A stretch of DNA of 64,000 bases. Source: Roseibacillus sp. (GTDB taxonomy: Bacteria > Verrucomicrobiota > Verrucomicrobiia > Verrucomicrobiales > Akkermansiaceae). The stretch lies in contig CBDEUM010000038.1 in assembly GCA_965242925.1 (NCBI GenBank), positions 224,001 through 288,000 on the forward strand. The letters run 5' to 3'. Of the stretch, positions 40,235-49,605 are shown one piece after another. Made by a program: the position numbers and the translations under genes. The notes beneath the pieces were generated by a model. The model was not told where the DNA came from and did no database searches. It worked only from the letters and a program-made list of their open reading frames with translations. The stretch's first letter is position 1, and each line of letters starts with the position of its first letter.

Positions 40235-41338
40235 TTACCTTTTGCGGTGCTCCTCATGCCAGTCCTGGTAGACCTGCGGGGAGATCTCCGAGGGTTTGAT
40301 CTCGCTTCGGCCACCCCAGAAGACATTGGTGTAGGATACCGGAATTCCGACCTCTTGGAGGTGGCGATCGATGGAGGCCTTATGCGCCAAGACAGTATTC
40401 TTCTCGGAACCGTGGACCACTCCCATGATGTTCACATTTCCGAATTCGGGTCCAGCCTCCCGCCAGTAGGCATGTGTCATGCAGTGGTGGCGGCCCACCT
40501 CGCCGCCGGCCTCAACTTCCCGTCCCGGGGGGACAGCCCAGTGAAAGAGACCATTAAAGCGTGTCACGCGTTTGCCTGTTCTGGATGGCTTGGCGTGTTC
40601 CAGGAAGGTCGAAAAGCGTCCGATCACTTTCCTGGAATTGAGAATGCGAGCCACCTCAATGAACCGGCCAAGGGAAACCCCCGCCACTTCGGCGCGCCGA
40701 TCCCACGGATTTTCTATGATCTCGTCCGGTTCCAGCTCTTCCTTCATGACCATGAGGACCCGCCATTCTTCCTCGTTCAGTTCCACGGTAGTGGTGGTCA
40801 TCATCTGGGCAGCTTTGTCGATCCGCGCGCCGGGTTCCAGTCCCCTGCGGCGCACATGACCGACTCCAAGGGCGAAGAGGCCTGCGGCGGGCATGAGGAG
40901 GAACTTGTCCGCTCCGACAAGGCGTTGCAGAACTTCACCGTGCTCCTGCAGGGATTGTCCCTGGGGGACCTTGAGAGTGGTCCAGAGACGGTATGCGGAA
41001 CCCGAAACCTCTTCGTCGGTGGAGCGAATGACCACGTGTCCGGAGAAAGGATCCTTCTGGGACATGAAGTCGAAGGCATCATTCAGTCTCTCAGGCGCCA
41101 CTTTCCATGCCACGAGGGCACCGTGAGCCAGTTTGGTGGCCAGCAGGGTTTGACGCACGCGCCTGATAACCCCGGCCTCCAGCATGGCACGGATGCGCTC
41201 CAGAACTGTTTCGAGGGGAACGCCGGATTGATGAGAAATAACGTGAAAGGGTCGCTCCTGAAATCCTTCCACCAGGTCTTCGGATACGGAAAGGATGCGC
41301 GCGTTCGTGGTGTCGTCGTGCTCGGTGGGGATAATCAT
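40235..41338 (-). CDS. Fused siroheme-decarboxylase-like (AhbA/AhbB, NirDL-like; Lrp/AsnC fold) protein
   Basis: Two Lrp-like halves: RPF..I..G...LEAGVIRR, ALVAWKV, GHVVIR, LWTTL; second half with THAYWR. Confidence 0.65.
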   Translation of the reverse strand: MIIPTEHDDTTNARILSVSEDLVEGFQERPFHVISHQSGVPLETVLERIRAMLEAGVIRRVRQTLLATKLAHGALVAWKVAPERLNDAFDFMSQKDPFSGHVVIRSTDEEVSGSAYRLWTTLKVPQGQSLQEHGEVLQRLVGADKFLLMPAAGLFALGVGHVRRRGLEPGARIDKAAQMMTTTTVELNEEEWRVLMVMKEELEPDEIIENPWDRRAEVAGVSLGRFIEVARILNSRKVIGRFSTFLEHAKPSRTGKRVTRFNGLFHWAVPPGREVEAGGEVGRHHCMTHAYWREAGPEFGNVNIMGVVHGSEKNTVLAHKASIDRHLQEVGIPVSYTNVFWGGRSEIKPSEISPQVYQDWHEEHRKR

Positions 41339-41427
41339 GGAGTTCGGGAGCAAATGCGTGTGGAGCAGGTCCTGGGGGACTGTGTGAATTTCTTCGAAAT
41401 TGCGTGACCAATGTGGATGGCTCCGGT

Positions 41428-44071: not shown

Positions 44072-44896
44072 CTACAGGCACAGCCGCCTGAAGATTTCGT
44101 CAAGAGGCATTTGCATTCCGATATAGAAATCGCCGAACTCGCCATAGCGGACGGAGACAGGATCAAAGCGCATCTCGTAGACAATGGCCTTGATGTCGAT
44201 GGTGTCCTTGGCCAGCAGGGTGACGCCCCACTCGGCATCATCAAGACCGGTGGACCCGGTAATCAACTGGAGAATACGTCCGGAGTATTTGCGGCCAGTA
44301 GTGGCGTGCCCCTTCATCAGATTGCGGCGTGCTTCAAAATCCAGGGCGTACCAGTTGTCATCCCCTTGCCGGCGTTTGGACATGGGGTAGAAACAGATGG
44401 CGGGCCAGTCCGGAAGGACGGGGTGGAGCCGGTGTTCCAGGTAGTGGCTCATGCGCTCGTCGAATTCCGTGAGTTTGGTTTCAAACTCCGCCGAGCCCTC
44501 TTCAAGCCCCTCCTCGGCCTTCAGGGTCTCTTCGGCGTACTGTTCCCTGGTTGAGGTGTATTCGGAGCGCTCGGTCTGCGAGAGATAGGAATAGACTGGG
44601 GCAAGGACGTCGATCCCGAGCGAAAGGGTCAGTCGCTTTTCGAAGGTGTTGGCGACCTGCAGGTCCGGAGTGAGCAACATGAATCCGAGGTCGGCCTTGG
44701 GAGTGGCTACCGTGAAGGTCAGGAGCTGGGTGTCGGGCGTGGTGCGAATCTCCTGAACGAGTTCAGTGAAGGCGGTTTTTGCTTCCCGCTTCTCGTTGTC
44801 ATCCAGGATCTGCCACTGGCCGTGATCAATGTGGTAGAAGAGGTGCATGACGTGCCAGCCTTCGCGGGGCACGAGCGGGGATGGAGGTTCGGACAT
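44072..44896 (-). CDS. chdC: Coproheme decarboxylase (HemQ/ChdC, chlorite dismutase family)
   Basis: EGWHVMH; CFYPMSKRR..NWY; MKGH..GRKY; GLDDAEWGV; YEMRFD. Confidence 0.9.
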   Translation of the reverse strand: MSEPPSPLVPREGWHVMHLFYHIDHGQWQILDDNEKREAKTAFTELVQEIRTTPDTQLLTFTVATPKADLGFMLLTPDLQVANTFEKRLTLSLGIDVLAPVYSYLSQTERSEYTSTREQYAEETLKAEEGLEEGSAEFETKLTEFDERMSHYLEHRLHPVLPDWPAICFYPMSKRRQGDDNWYALDFEARRNLMKGHATTGRKYSGRILQLITGSTGLDDAEWGVTLLAKDTIDIKAIVYEMRFDPVSVRYGEFGDFYIGMQMPLDEIFRRLCL

Positions 44897-45630: not shown

Positions 45631-45775
45631 CCGGGAGAGGGAAACCTCTAACCGTTTGCTCCGGACTTGACCAGCGTCGAATCGGGGGTCCCAAAATGGG
45701 AAGGGAAAAGGATTGCATCTCCTCGCCTGCTGATCCAAGCAGTGCTTGGATGCTTGGCAGAATCCGTTTAATCCA

Positions 45776-46012
45776 ATGGCAGATCGCGAAGACAAGGTTC
45801 CGGAAAACATAGACGGCAAGTTTTACGTCGACACTCAGTGTATTGATTGCGATCTTTGTCGCGAAACGGCACCGGAGAATTTCAAGCGTGAAGAAGACGA
45901 GGGATACTCCTACGTCTATAAACAGCCCGATAACCAGGAAGAGGAGGACCAGTGCCGGGAGGCTATGGAGGGGTGTCCAGTGGAGGCCATCGGAGACGGC
46001 GAGGGCGACTAG
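45776..46012 (+). CDS. Single-cluster ferredoxin
   Basis: CIDCDLC..AP..F and CPVEAIG. Confidence 0.93.
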   Translation: MADREDKVPENIDGKFYVDTQCIDCDLCRETAPENFKREEDEGYSYVYKQPDNQEEEDQCREAMEGCPVEAIGDGEGD

Positions 46013-46398
46013 GGAGAACTACCCGCCGTCGTGGGCTCGCGCGAGGAGACGCCATTCGAGCTCAGGTGCTCCGGGATTTTCGCGGGGCGGGGGAGCCCCT
46101 TGACCTTGATCGGAACATGAGCACGCCGGCGGATTTGCTCGGCGGGATTTTGAAGAACCTTCGGCTCACGGAGGGGATCGAGGAGAGTCGTCTCCGAAGC
46201 GCTTGGCTTGAGGTAGCCGGTGAATTTGTGGCAAGGCAGACGGAACCGGTATCGCTTTACCAGGGAGTCCTCACCCTTCGTGTCCTGCAGCCATCCATGC
46301 GTTTTCACTTGGAGCAAACCCGGACCCAGCTCCTTCGACGGTTGAAACAGCAGCTCGGTTCCAGGAAGGTTCGCGATGTGCGATTGGTTGTTGGCTGA
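45973..46398 (+). CDS. DUF721/DciA-family protein (start uncertain; alternative ATG at 46117)
   Basis: LRSAWLEVAGEFVARQTEPVSL..GVLTLRV...LLRRLKQQLG...VRDVRL. Confidence 0.75.
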   Translation: MSSGGHRRRRGRLGRTTRRRGLARGDAIRAQVLRDFRGAGEPLDLDRNMSTPADLLGGILKNLRLTEGIEESRLRSAWLEVAGEFVARQTEPVSLYQGVLTLRVLQPSMRFHLEQTRTQLLRRLKQQLGSRKVRDVRLVVG

Positions 46399-46510
46399 CT
46401 ACGGAATTGGATATTCAAACGACAGATATTCCGATGACGGAAGCAGGTGGTCGGGGACTTTGGCAATGGCAGCCTGAATTCCGGATCGCATCCCCAATTC
46501 TGTGAAAGAC

Positions 46511-47518
46511 ATGTTCAGAGCCCTTATTCTCGACTGGTCCGGCACTCTGGTGGATGACTCCGCGCCCACCCTGGCGGCCACTAATGCAGTTCTTGCGCAA
46601 TATGACAGGCAGCCAATGACCTGGGAGCAGTTCCGGGAGAGCTTTCGGTTACCTTATTCGGAGTGGTATGCGGAACATGTTCCCGGCATTTCCCTCAAGG
46701 AACTGGAAGAGCACTTTCGCGTGGCCTTCGATTCATCGGAGCACCCGGTCATCCCTCTGGCGGGCACGGCTGAGTTCCTCCAATGGTGCAGTGAAAACTG
46801 CATCCGACTCTTTGTGCTCACCAGCATGAATACGGATAATTTCAGCCAGCAGCTGCGGGAATTCGGATTCGATAGACACTTTGAGCAAACTTACTCCGGC
46901 GTGATCGACAAACGTACCGTGATCGGGAAGATCATTGCCGAGCATGGACTGGATTCGGCAAAGACCGCTTACGTGGGGGACATGGCACACGATATTGAGA
47001 CCGCCCATGACGGAGGCGTTACGGCGATAGGAGTGCTGAGCGGGTACGATCCTGCTTCGCAGCTGGCGGCGGCCGGTCCCCATTTCCTGTTCTCCTGCAT
47101 CAAGTCGGTGCACGCCCTGCTTCAGGGAAGTTTCCCGGAGGCACGATGTGCCTGTGGGGAGTCGATCGTCATCCGGCGCCTGGCTGTGAGTTGCTTCATC
47201 GGAGTTCCCGAGGAAGAGCGGGCGGAAAGGCAGACTCTTCACCTGACCGTTGAGATTGTTCCAGAGCGAAATTTCGCCAGTCTCTGCGATCGCCTGGAGC
47301 TCACCGTGGACTATGACAAGGTCGCCCGCCGCATAGGAGAATTGGCCGGGGAGCGCCCAAGGAAGCTTATCGAGACCCTGGCGGACGAGGTTGCTCGGAT
47401 GATTCTGAAGGAATTTTCCGCCCGGGAAGTCTCGGTTGAAATTGAGAAGGACATCCTTCCTGAAACCGAGGCGGTTCTTGTCCGGACGCGACGGATGCGT
47501 AAGCCATCGGCAGGCTGA
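46511..47518 (+). CDS. folB: HAD-family hydrolase fused to dihydroneopterin aldolase (FolB)
   Basis: N-terminal ILDWSGTLVD..YVGDMAHD; C-terminal IGVPEEERAERQ, TVDY, LIETLA, IEK. Confidence 0.88.
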   Translation: MFRALILDWSGTLVDDSAPTLAATNAVLAQYDRQPMTWEQFRESFRLPYSEWYAEHVPGISLKELEEHFRVAFDSSEHPVIPLAGTAEFLQWCSENCIRLFVLTSMNTDNFSQQLREFGFDRHFEQTYSGVIDKRTVIGKIIAEHGLDSAKTAYVGDMAHDIETAHDGGVTAIGVLSGYDPASQLAAAGPHFLFSCIKSVHALLQGSFPEARCACGESIVIRRLAVSCFIGVPEEERAERQTLHLTVEIVPERNFASLCDRLELTVDYDKVARRIGELAGERPRKLIETLADEVARMILKEFSAREVSVEIEKDILPETEAVLVRTRRMRKPSAG

Positions 47519-47560
47519 TAGCGGACTGCCAAAAGTGTCGTCCTGAGGGGTCCTTGCCCT

Positions 47561-47588
47561 TTGACACTGCATGCAGGTGCTTTAGGCT
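47561..47588 (+). promoter_or_regulatory. Putative sigma70 promoter TTGACA-N16-TAGGCT
   Basis: Consensus -35 and TAnnnT -10, 28 nt upstream of the ECF sigma ATG. Confidence 0.55.
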
Positions 47589-47616
47589 GCAGCGTAGTCC
47601 TTCCCTCTCTGCCAGC

Positions 47617-48204
47617 ATGGCTGAAAAAGTGAATGATCCCGATCAAGAACTCATCCGGCGTGCCCAGGAAGGAGATACCCAGGCTTTCGATGACCTGGTC
47701 ATCAAATACAGCCGCAAGCTCTACGGTCTGGTCTATAACATGACCTCCAACAAGGAGGACACTCACGATCTCCTGCAGGAGATCTTTGCCAAGGCTTACC
47801 GCTCCCTGCGGCATTTCCGCGGGAAGTCTACCTTCTATACCTGGATCTATTCCATCGCGACCAACATGACCCTCAACTTCCTCAAGAAGCGGGGACGGAG
47901 GAGGGGGCTCAGCCTGGACGACGTGGACAGCGGTATTCAGAACGACACCTCCTTCGTGGACCAGGGTCACCGAGCCAATCCCCGTCGCCAGAGCAACATC
48001 CACGAACTTCAAAAAAGATTGAACGAAGCACTCCAGGCTCTGTCTGAAGACCACAGAGCAGTTGTCACCATGTTTGACATTCAGGGAATACCGCACGCTG
48101 AGATCAGTAAGATCCTTGGAGTATCCGAAGGCACAATACGATCGCGTCTTTACTATGCCCATCAGCAACTGCAGGGGCACTTGGAGGACTTCTGGAAACG
48201 ATGA
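47617..48204 (+). CDS. ECF RNA polymerase sigma factor (RpoE-like)
   Basis: DQELIRRAQEGD..AF; F.GKSTFYTWIYSIA.N; EISKILGVSEGTIRSRL. Confidence 0.93.
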   Translation: MAEKVNDPDQELIRRAQEGDTQAFDDLVIKYSRKLYGLVYNMTSNKEDTHDLLQEIFAKAYRSLRHFRGKSTFYTWIYSIATNMTLNFLKKRGRRRGLSLDDVDSGIQNDTSFVDQGHRANPRRQSNIHELQKRLNEALQALSEDHRAVVTMFDIQGIPHAEISKILGVSEGTIRSRLYYAHQQLQGHLEDFWKR

Positions 48205-48269
48205 GGGTTTGATGACTTTGAGGAACTCCACAAAGAATTCAGGACTCATTTACTAGTTACCCATTATCT

Positions 48270-48650
48270 GTGAACAGGGAATTTCAAGAACTGCAAGAAC
48301 TCCTTGAGGAGCGTGGACAGGGTGTTCCGGGAGACGACTATTTTGAAGGGTTTCTGGCGGACTTCCATCGTCGGCAGCGTCAGGACTTGATGAAGCGTTC
48401 CGCGCGCAGTCTCTTCCTGGAGCGGATGGGAGTCTGGCTGCGGGAGATGGGGGGATCGAAATGGGCCTATGGCGCCGGTGCGGCTTATGTGTTGGTGATC
48501 GCCGGCTTATTCGCCTGGCCCAGGGGCAGAGACAGCAAGGAAGGGATAGAACCAGTCTCGCTGGAGGTGCCGGAACAGAAGACTCTCCACTTCGAAGGGG
48601 AACGCTCCGGGAAGAAGGAGAACGAGCCTCCCAAGGCGACCGAATTCTAG
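48270..48650 (+). CDS. Putative membrane-bound anti-sigma factor
   Basis: Directly after the ECF sigma; P.DDYFE.F motif followed by a single TM helix. Confidence 0.65.
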   Translation: MNREFQELQELLEERGQGVPGDDYFEGFLADFHRRQRQDLMKRSARSLFLERMGVWLREMGGSKWAYGAGAAYVLVIAGLFAWPRGRDSKEGIEPVSLEVPEQKTLHFEGERSGKKENEPPKATEF

Positions 48651-48720
48651 GTTGTCATCTTTTTGTGGAGTGATGAGTTTGCTCTTCCCCCTCCGAATTA
48701 TCAACGGAGTTTTCTATCGA

Positions 48721-49605
48721 ATGCGAACGGCTGCACTGCCGGCAGTTTTTGTTTGCGCGACGGGAGCGCTCGTGGCCCAGAGTGGAGTGTCTTTTAAGGC
48801 GTTGGAGGGAGGTGGTGCTCCGGTTCAATCCAGCAGCGTATCCCTCGGTGGAGGACGACTGGCAACCATCGCCGTGGTGGGGAGCAATCCACAACAGGCG
48901 ACCATGGAATCGGGCCGGGCGCTCAAGTTCGTCGGGCATGATCCTGCTACCCGGTTGACCGTGCTGGCCGGGCCGGAGGATGACAGCGAGTCGGCTTCTC
49001 TCGGCAGTGCGCTCGGGTTGTTGCCCGGAGAGGCAGTGTATCTTCCCGGTCAGAAGCGGGCCAGCCGGGTGGTGCGCTGGGAGGACACCTTCCAGGGGAA
49101 GGTTTTGCCGGTGGCCCTCCTCCGTATTCACCATCCCCTTCAGGACGCTCCTCTGCCGGGGACTCCGCTGACCAATGCCAGGGGGGAGGTGATAGCTCTC
49201 TGCCATGAGGAGGCTTCCGGATCGGGGAATGGAACCTATGCCTTGCCGGTGGAGGCAGTGCAGCGAATAGAGTTCGATCTCAAGAACTTCGGACGTGTCT
49301 CGCCGTGTTGGATCGGAGTTACTGTCAATGCGGTCAGTCCGGTCCTCGCCCTCGAAATGGTGCGCCCGGACTCACCTGGTGCAGTTGCCGGCCTGAAGCG
49401 GGGCGATATTCTGCTCTCGGTTGGGCGGCGGCGGGTGAGTAACTACGCCGAGGCTCGGAATGCCTTCTACTACCTGATGGCAGGCCGGACTACCAATCTG
49501 ACTCTCCTGAGAGGAACCAGGCGTCTCGACCTGAAGGTTGTTCCCGAAGTGCACCCCGTCTACCGGGCGGAGCAGGATCGGGGGCGAGGCAAACAGGGGC
49601 CTTGA
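48721..49605 (+). CDS. S1C/HtrA-like protein with PDZ; degenerate active site
   Basis: GHDPATRLTVL; PGTPLTNARGEVI; YALPVE; WIGV; SPGAVAGLKRGDIL. Confidence 0.75.
   Translation: MRTAALPAVFVCATGALVAQSGVSFKALEGGGAPVQSSSVSLGGGRLATIAVVGSNPQQATMESGRALKFVGHDPATRLTVLAGPEDDSESASLGSALGLLPGEAVYLPGQKRASRVVRWEDTFQGKVLPVALLRIHHPLQDAPLPGTPLTNARGEVIALCHEEASGSGNGTYALPVEAVQRIEFDLKNFGRVSPCWIGVTVNAVSPVLALEMVRPDSPGAVAGLKRGDILLSVGRRRVSNYAEARNAFYYLMAGRTTNLTLLRGTRRLDLKVVPEVHPVYRAEQDRGRGKQGP

Follow-up and report, generated by a model that had tools for sequence, protein, structure and literature searches.

The last dephosphorylation in the pterin branch of folate synthesis, which releases the dihydroneopterin used by the aldolase FolB, continues to be attributed to a non-specific phosphatase (PMC1971073, PMC6451014), and the removal of pyrophosphate before it has been assigned to FolQ/NudB (PMC1971073, PMC6451014, PMC4161248). 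A gene at 46511..47518 (+) of a 64,000-nucleotide stretch of Roseibacillus sp. DNA (contig CBDEUM010000038.1, positions 224,001 to 288,000; the whole stretch is called the window below) encodes a HAD domain fused to FolB, and raises the question of whether this HAD carries out that last dephosphorylation. We give a somewhat better than even chance to the reading that it does, so that the protein would be a bifunctional pterin-branch enzyme with a dihydroneopterin-monophosphate phosphatase as its N-terminal domain, and a concrete, single-copy candidate for the step.

The gene formed one open frame of 335 amino acids from ATG to stop, as a preliminary description of the locus had read it. An alternative GTG start at 46502 would add three codons, and the position of the ATG was Met in 109 of 119 aligned homologues. 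Pfam HAD_2 covered residues 6-175 (74.6 bits, cut-off 23.8) and Pfam FolB residues 219-317 (75.3 bits, cut-off 31.8). The HAD domain (residues 1-205, 46511..47125) consists of a Rossmannoid core and a helical C1 cap (about residues 17-80), the linker (residues 206-218, 47126..47164) contains neither a stop nor an in-frame ATG, and the FolB domain follows at 47165..47497, all on the + strand. The linker position corresponds to a Nudix domain or a gene boundary in relatives. The AlphaFold model of the whole protein, made from a 131-row alignment, had a mean pLDDT of 94.3 and showed two domains with a low-confidence linker at 211-213. The homologue search gave 963 matches at E≤0.001, and among the best 120, for which the domain marks were checked, 119 carried both HAD_2 and FolB, the exception being P0051, which had no FolB mark. 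Because nearly all of the best homologues carry both domains, the fusion is not an assembly slip. One public contig of a seawater run (X2), which may be the source of this DNA, spanned 45700-47700 without a gap and with three other letters, one from run X7 (47051-47700) bridged the linker with one other letter, and no indels or joints were listed at the locus in the contigs of four public runs. The two-domain homologues and the indel-free contigs together ruled out a lost stop codon, and the fusion, which the preliminary description had proposed to survey across genomes, proved to be widespread. Contigs from RNA runs covered most of the gene, which cannot show transcription, and a scan for promoters and terminators found no excess over shuffled sequences. 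The named close relatives were metagenome-assembled genomes of Akkermansiaceae and Roseibacillus, which suggests that the window comes from a marine bacterium of this family, and proteins named from such genomes of Akkermansia clustered with a HAD-FolB representative.

Judged by profile, fold and active-site residues, the C-terminal domain is a FolB dihydroneopterin aldolase. Foldseek matched it to 3o1k (TM 0.91 of the target, root-mean-square deviation 1.6 Å), and the residues E236, Y268, E288 and K313 aligned to E22, Y54, E74 and K99 of M. tuberculosis FolB (PDB 1z9w/1nbu); the active-site roles of the conserved Glu, Tyr, Glu and Lys of FolB are described in PMC4790348 (section 2.3). All four residues were kept both in the fused (32 of 32) and in the separate FolB copies (110 of 110), consistent with the complete FolB of the preliminary description. 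The domain passed the model TIGR00526 (56.1, cut-off 45.05) and missed the full-length equivalog TIGR00525 (59.2, cut-off 72.15). The epimerase FolX was ruled out (NF008418, 32.9 against a cut-off of 152), and no conserved basic patch was seen in the FolB alignment.

The N-terminal domain is a HAD by its fold and by most of its motifs, but it is not a canonical DxD phosphatase. Its model had a pLDDT of 93.2 and matched 2ah5 best (Z 25.1, root-mean-square deviation 2.2 Å over 204 residues, 18% identity), and Foldseek on the whole model assigned C1-cap HADs to the first domain. Conservation was counted over the best 150 matches among 50%-identity representatives, using those that cover each site. 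The nucleophile by homology, D8, stands with W9, S10 and the hinge residues D15 and D16 at 46532..46558 and was present in 142 of 142 representatives. By alignment, motif II is T104-S105 (46820..46825; Ser or Thr at 104 in 150/150), and motif IV is G156-D157-M-A-H160-D161 (46976..46993; D157 in 142/143, D161 in 134/143), while K134 of motif III (46910..46912) was found in all 150; all of these lie on the + strand. Motif I reads DWSGT (D8-W9-S10-G11-T12) instead of DxDGT, as had been noted, and it did so in 117 of the 119 aligned homologues, the other two having gaps there (P0081 was omitted from this alignment). The general-acid position two residues after the nucleophile was Ser in 138 of 142 representatives and Asp in one. 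In the cap, F41, F45, P48 and Y53 were conserved, an aromatic cap that would suit a ring substrate, and no lysine was conserved in residues 17-82 across 131 aligned proteins. Named HAD functions were ruled out by their models: Gph by 44.7 bits for the best model against 368 and 40.6 against 180 for TIGR01449, as well as by the absence of the DxD motif, and PpaX by 19.7 bits against 218. Databases label the homologues as phosphoglycolate phosphatase (many of them, in JGI), HAD hydrolase-like protein or dihydroneopterin aldolase, the ESM Atlas yielded only automatically named HAD clusters, and the literature search found nothing on HADs with a DWSG motif.

Phosphonoacetaldehyde hydrolase (TIGR01422; 1fez) is likewise a HAD without the second Asp, and the preliminary description had drawn the parallel to its DWAGT motif, in which a Trp also follows the nucleophile. 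Phosphonatase uses a cap lysine for Schiff base formation. The analogy failed on both counts, as the fusion HAD has no conserved cap lysine and scored 22.6 bits against a cut-off of 220; the phosphonatase is also longer, 257 amino acids against 205. A role as phosphonatase was thereby ruled out.

The loss of the second Asp appeared to be compensated at the hinge of the cap. In HAD phosphatases the second Asp of DxD serves as general acid-base (PMC12715507). Beta-phosphoglucomutase has D8 as nucleophile and D10 as general acid-base, the latter becoming engaged as the hinge residues D15 and T16 rearrange, T16 being coordinated in the closed form (PMC6713671, PMC9171722). This numbering matches the positions in the fusion HAD, where the hinge position +8, usually Ser or Thr, is Asp (D16). 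Among the 141 representatives without Asp at +2, Asp stood at +8 in 131, the others having Asn (7), Glu (2) or Ala (1), and the lone revertant, P0251, had Asp at +2 and Ser at +8. As a control, 90 other HAD_2 loci of the phylum were read; 10 had no motif match and were excluded, and the remaining 80 gave 85 motifs. Asp at +8 was found in none of the 82 motifs with Asp at +2 and in all three without it, which read DWNGT. From this covariation and the hinge positions of beta-phosphoglucomutase we infer that Asp16 supplies the lost carboxylate, so that the acid-base role of Asp10 has probably passed to the hinge by a Ser/Asp swap. H160, present in 69 of 69 members of the FolB-linked clade (clade II, described below), is a second candidate for that role. 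Against the swap it can be said that the covariation partly reflects shared ancestry, a single inherited trait being counted repeatedly rather than as independent events. The preliminary description was therefore right that Ser replaces the second Asp, but the Asp looks relocated to +8 rather than lost as such. HADs with DWNGT or DFNGT motifs at five loci (L307, L308, L315, L092, L098) likewise had Asp at +8, which points to a larger family in which the second Asp is missing; a DWNG-type protein used as query matched only four relatives.

The genome that contains the window (89.9% complete) carries FolE2, FolK, FolP and a single PTPS, which bears QueD's CxxxHGH signature; a search for classical FolE found none, and the fusion is its only FolB. 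Signatures that separate QueD from PTPS-III have been reported (PMC5041015), and since the sole PTPS is of the QueD type, no PTPS-III bypass exists in this genome; all 36 PTPS proteins with a readable motif were of the CxxxHGH type. This genome has four Nudix genes, which look like MutT/NudG, RppH, NudE/NudF and an RsmA-YfcD fusion; apart from RsmA the scores are below the cut-offs, and none of the four was an orthologue of the Nudix that accompanies the HAD in relatives (best E 2e-7; no match at 1e-12). The RsmA/KsgA gene fused to a YfcD/IDI-like Nudix (L354, G000:C30:269979-271424, -) is separated from folE2 by some 3.6 kb that contain unrelated genes. A separate Gph-like HAD with DLDGT is encoded on contig C31. 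Two genomes of one genus (G102 and G631 of g2, in 80 and 140 contigs) kept FolK and FolP and had neither FolB nor a DWSG HAD, only a QueD-type PTPS being found; this gap may come from the assemblies or from a bypass by another route.

Among relatives, the HAD was found as HAD-FolB, as HAD-Nudix followed by folB, as HAD followed by folB, as a triple HAD-Nudix-FolB and alone. The best 150 matches in the 50%-identity library comprised 113 proteins with HAD only (gene context unread), 17 HAD-FolB, 13 HAD-Nudix, six triples and one split match, and P0081 was a seventh triple; L036, a candidate triple fusion, was rejected as a frameshifted HAD-Nudix running into folB. Class-wide counts came from 201 genomes and are descriptions rather than tests, since the genomes include kin that are not independent. 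The HAD occurred in 144 of them, one copy each, and FolB was found in 142 of these 144 against 46 of the 57 genomes without the HAD. Outside the class, one genome of the phylum sample gave a strong HAD match. Among the 108 genomes with a listed folB position, folB lay within 2 kb downstream of the HAD in 82 (45 with the Nudix and 37 without), and fetched loci added 20 genomes, giving 102 of 130 resolved, with 14 of the 144 unresolved. Of 144 unique clade-II loci that extend 1100 nt or more downstream, 138 had folB there, a sample biased towards close matches and counting L036 despite its frameshift, and metagenome loci of the FolB-linked clade had folB in 48 of 50. The upstream neighbour of the HAD varies and the downstream folB stays: dciA, taken as a control gene, was upstream of the HAD in 11 of 64 diverse loci by Pfam and was never fused to it. 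A quick IQ-TREE tree of 86 rows, with four outgroup rows, used loci thinned to 75% identity and left out short ones that lacked folB. It required at least 11 changes of the Nudix state and at least 7 of the fused HAD-FolB state, the HAD remaining with folB; 36 of its 83 inner branches were unresolved, and gain and loss are indistinguishable in these numbers.

A Nudix orthologue was present in 70 genomes of the class and directly behind the HAD in 69, the 70th starting at a contig edge. This arrangement suggests two successive steps, and with the Nudix partner accounting for pyrophosphate removal, the best fit for the HAD is the monophosphate step. In the proposed pathway, FolE2 would produce dihydroneopterin triphosphate; pyrophosphate would be removed by the Nudix, which about half of the relatives have joined to the HAD, and in the host by a promiscuous paralogue or by spontaneous hydrolysis; the HAD, from a nucleoside-monophosphatase-like family, would take the last phosphate off dihydroneopterin 3'-monophosphate in a Mg2+-dependent reaction with a phospho-Asp8 intermediate; and the fused FolB would split dihydroneopterin into 6-hydroxymethyl-dihydropterin and glycolaldehyde. 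Dihydroneopterin triphosphate can lose pyrophosphate without an enzyme. Both the substrate of the HAD and the agent that removes pyrophosphate where the Nudix is missing are predictions, and the triple HAD-Nudix-FolB reads as the three successive steps in one chain. The preliminary description had proposed a dedicated hydrolase of dihydroneopterin tri- or monophosphate feeding FolB; the pterin-branch context, with the fusion as sole FolB and the linkage to folB, supports its outline, and the Nudix fused to the HAD in relatives makes the monophosphate step a better fit than the triphosphate step.

The HAD family extends beyond the folate context. On a FastTree tree of 171 HAD domains, clade II (support 0.995), with all FolB-linked forms, separated from clade I, whose named members come from Aenigmatarchaeota, other archaea and a candidate-phylum bacterium. 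Clade I shares the motifs of clade II (DWSG, K134 and GDxxHD), and clade II has conserved cap and core residues of its own, such as N25, E66 and Q114, which are rare in clade I. Since the sister clade without folB carries the same motif among nucleotide genes, DWSG is not specific to folate, and the motif is older than the link to folB; the earlier idea that DWSGT marks chemistry dedicated to pterins did not survive this comparison. The ancestral job looks like nucleoside-monophosphate hydrolysis, and such an ancestor suits a monophosphate derived from GTP. Another 20 loci, of clade I or with weaker matches, were scanned for their neighbours (60 of 73 frames): seven had a neighbour in nucleotide metabolism, two were borderline (RuBisCO, HIT) and 11 had unrelated neighbours. 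The neighbours in the seven loci were a Nudix directly upstream (L100, L113), ribonucleotide reductase, guanylate kinase, nucleoside phosphorylase, deoxyribosyltransferase, dCTP deaminase, prs/purL, thymidylate synthase and adenosine deaminase. Nucleotide monophosphates, the substrates suggested by these neighbours, are molecules of the kind to which pterin monophosphate belongs, and in that respect the neighbours support the proposed function.

Several observations weigh against a dihydroneopterin-monophosphate phosphatase. Neither folB nor folP was found in any of five clade-I genomes, which are incomplete (0.4-1.4 Mb), and folB was found at none of 16 clade-I metagenome loci, eight of which had at least 600 nt downstream. 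At L038:3005-5961 the HAD has pyrD on one side and pyrK-pyrC on the other, pyrF being close by (NCBIfam), and a similar pyr order was seen in L040, L041:3791-7752, L042 and L088 (pyrC confirmed for L041, the rest by eye), all of one related group; the stand-alone DWSG HAD of these small archaeal pyr operons is a candidate pyrimidine nucleotidase. Within the class, folB lay elsewhere in 26 of the 108 genomes (13 of one family and 13 others, 10 with HAD-Nudix), and two HAD genomes have no folB. The 46 genomes with FolB and without the HAD imply that the HAD is dispensable or replaced there. No Nudix orthologue was present in 75 of the 144 HAD genomes, the host included, which leaves the upstream step unexplained in them. 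The partner Nudix is no clear NudB orthologue, with 29 bits against 103 for the NudB model NF006961; its nearest solved relatives are NudI, and the match to 2o1c (E 3e-8) ranked below them. FolB also fuses readily: a cpYpsA SLOG-FolB protein occurred in three of four examined genomes of family f8, and the supplement of PMC4921024 reports more than seven types of FolB fusion. Genomes without folK lacked the HAD in seven of eight cases, which was not used as support, as most belong to families where the HAD was not found anyway.

A rival explanation makes the HAD, together with the Nudix where there is one, a housekeeping nucleotidase for ordinary or damaged nucleotides (NTP to NMP to nucleoside), folB being an old operon neighbour that became fused because FolB tolerates N-terminal partners. 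The folB-less sister clade in pyrimidine operons, the nucleotide-metabolism neighbours in 7 of 20 loci, an independent HAD-Nudix fusion in that clade (P0207) and a partner Nudix closest to NudI all fit this explanation, as do the replication gene dciA in the ancestral cluster, the adjacency of dciA and folB in four genomes without the HAD, the cpYpsA-FolB fusion and the 10 genomes with HAD-Nudix away from folB. We nevertheless consider it unlikely, since the linkage to folB outlasts that to dciA (138/144 against 11/64 loci) and survives repeated loss of the Nudix, the fusion partners are FolB and Nudix and never DciA, clade II has its own conserved residues, and the neighbours in 11 of the 20 clade-I loci were unrelated. 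If the enzyme is broad, this explanation and the monophosphatase overlap.

Distinctly less probable is that the HAD strips all three phosphates stepwise, from the triphosphate to the free pterin, the Nudix being redundant and for this reason repeatedly lost; this corresponds to the triphosphate version of the preliminary description. The 75 HAD genomes without the orthologue would then be accounted for, none of the four host Nudix proteins exceeds the cut-off for a pterin enzyme, and the pyrophosphatase BT2127 is among the fold matches. Good leaving groups, for example anhydrides, are well matched to a HAD that lacks the general acid, which also counts for this explanation. It is opposed by the position of the Nudix, fused behind the HAD in 69 of 70 genomes where it is present, by HAD motifs that are alike in Nudix-bearing and Nudix-less forms, and by the promiscuity of Nudix enzymes, NudB itself having first been described as a dATP diphosphatase (PMC5389931).

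It is very improbable that the HAD acts after the aldolase, with FolB cleaving a phosphorylated pterin and the HAD hydrolysing glycolaldehyde phosphate as an enzyme like phosphoglycolate phosphatase. This would agree with the automatic annotation, with the JGI names of many homologues and with the Gph-like best matches in NCBIfam and by fold, but the Gph scores fall far short of the cut-offs (44.7/368 and 40.6/180), a separate DLDGT Gph-like HAD exists on C31, the FolB domain does not score as FolX and shows no conserved basic patch in the alignment, and the cap would suit a ring substrate and has no lysine for a Schiff base. Just as improbable is a pyrophosphatase acting on the pyrophosphate that the Nudix sets free, or a binding domain with weak catalysis or none, for although the canonical general acid is lost and PpaX and BT2127 are among the distant matches, D8, K134 and D157 are near-invariant over 142-150 representatives and D161 is kept in 134 of 143, the HAD is retained where the Nudix is lost, the PpaX model gave 19.7 of 218 bits, and the codon differences from L001 were 20 synonymous and 8 non-synonymous.

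The surroundings of the fusion gene in the window are varied. Upstream lie dciA, of the replicative helicase loader family (46117..46398, +, Pfam DciA), which is probably outside the functional unit of the fusion, and before it a 4Fe-4S ferredoxin gene (45746..46012, +, Pfam Fer4_13). Downstream, at 47617-49605, an ECF sigma factor, a small membrane protein without a Pfam domain, which at a guess is anti-sigma-like, and a PDZ-domain protein follow in a row. A chlorite dismutase/HemQ-family gene (44072-44896, -, Pfam) and an AsnC/Lrp-like protein judged by eye to resemble siroheme decarboxylase (40235-41353, -) read as pieces of heme synthesis near the locus.

Other arrangements of the same genes were seen elsewhere. 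The SLOG-FolB fusions of family f8 (PF12694, >175 bits) are at L208:976-1896 (-), L209:1593-2561 (-) and L210:1000-2124 (+), from G132, G570 and G565, respectively, and the circularly permuted YpsA SLOG domain is possibly a second Rosetta-stone partner of FolB; in that family the HAD was apart from folB in 13 of 13 genomes, and in the loci seen it stood behind a LOG/PpnN-like gene. A LOG-like gene was also upstream of the pyr-operon HAD in L041 and L042. The gene dciA lies directly before folB in L212, L215, L216 and L217, with an ADP-ribose-pyrophosphatase-like Nudix after folB in L212. P0134 has an Smr domain ahead of HAD-Nudix (one of 150 representatives) and may be a read-through, and at G004:C57:5723-7696 (L074, L283) another HAD gene, unlike the first, comes directly after HAD-Nudix and folB. 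In a small archaeal genome, a fusion of MtrA, thymidylate synthase and PterinBD/DUF4346 (L093:1-1422, -) lies beside a DWSG HAD, the only pterin-related neighbour seen in clade I.

If the assignment to dihydroneopterin monophosphate is true, the common annotation as phosphoglycolate phosphatase would be corrected and a second Nudix family would be added to the pathway. In a bolder form, which we put forward tentatively and regard as doubtful, the DWSG HADs of clade II, which most Verrucomicrobiia have, Akkermansia among them, would be the first phosphatase dedicated to dihydroneopterin monophosphate and would define an undescribed HAD class (DxS/DxN ... DD) with the general acid-base moved from +2 to the hinge at +8, whose Nudix-less forms may also take the triphosphate. 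The gene family offers a test of whether a HAD works with its acid-base Asp moved six residues along, and a cultured source is available in Roseibacillus ishigakijimensis (WP_200390830.1). No report of a HAD-FolB or HAD-Nudix-FolB protein was found in the open-access literature including the supplement of PMC1971073, subscription journals and the fusion table in Additional file 1 of PMC4921024, which may list the fusion, being outside this scope. What the window contributes is the form without a Nudix, the sister clade that lacks folB and the Ser10/Asp16 swap.

Among known systems, the fusion shares the fold and the four active-site residues of FolB (PF02152; PDB 1z9w, 1nbu, 3o1k) and differs from it by the N-terminal HAD. 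With C1-cap HAD-IA proteins (the Gph-like 2ah5, 3mc1, 3sd7 and 2hsz, PpaX, BT2127 and beta-phosphoglucomutase) it has the fold (Z 20-25) and motifs I-IV in common, but at 18-24% identity, with Ser for the general-acid Asp and Asp for the hinge Ser/Thr, and all named equivalog models are far below their cut-offs for it. FolQ of L. lactis, NudB of E. coli and AtNUDT1 act in the same pathway segment; relatives of the fusion have a Nudix between HAD and FolB, whereas the fusion itself has none and its HAD would perform the following step. A FolQ-FolB fusion is listed for Parachlamydia (PMC1971073, Table 2), which is Nudix-FolB there against HAD-FolB without Nudix here. HADs have also been found through fusions to enzymes of B-vitamin synthesis, such as TenA-HAD and the HAD-IA/IB proteins of thiamin synthesis (PMC4921024, Table 4). 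The logic would be the same here, a HAD fused to a vitamin enzyme filling the gap left to a non-specific phosphatase, but in the folate pathway, with a different HAD subfamily and with the second Asp missing.

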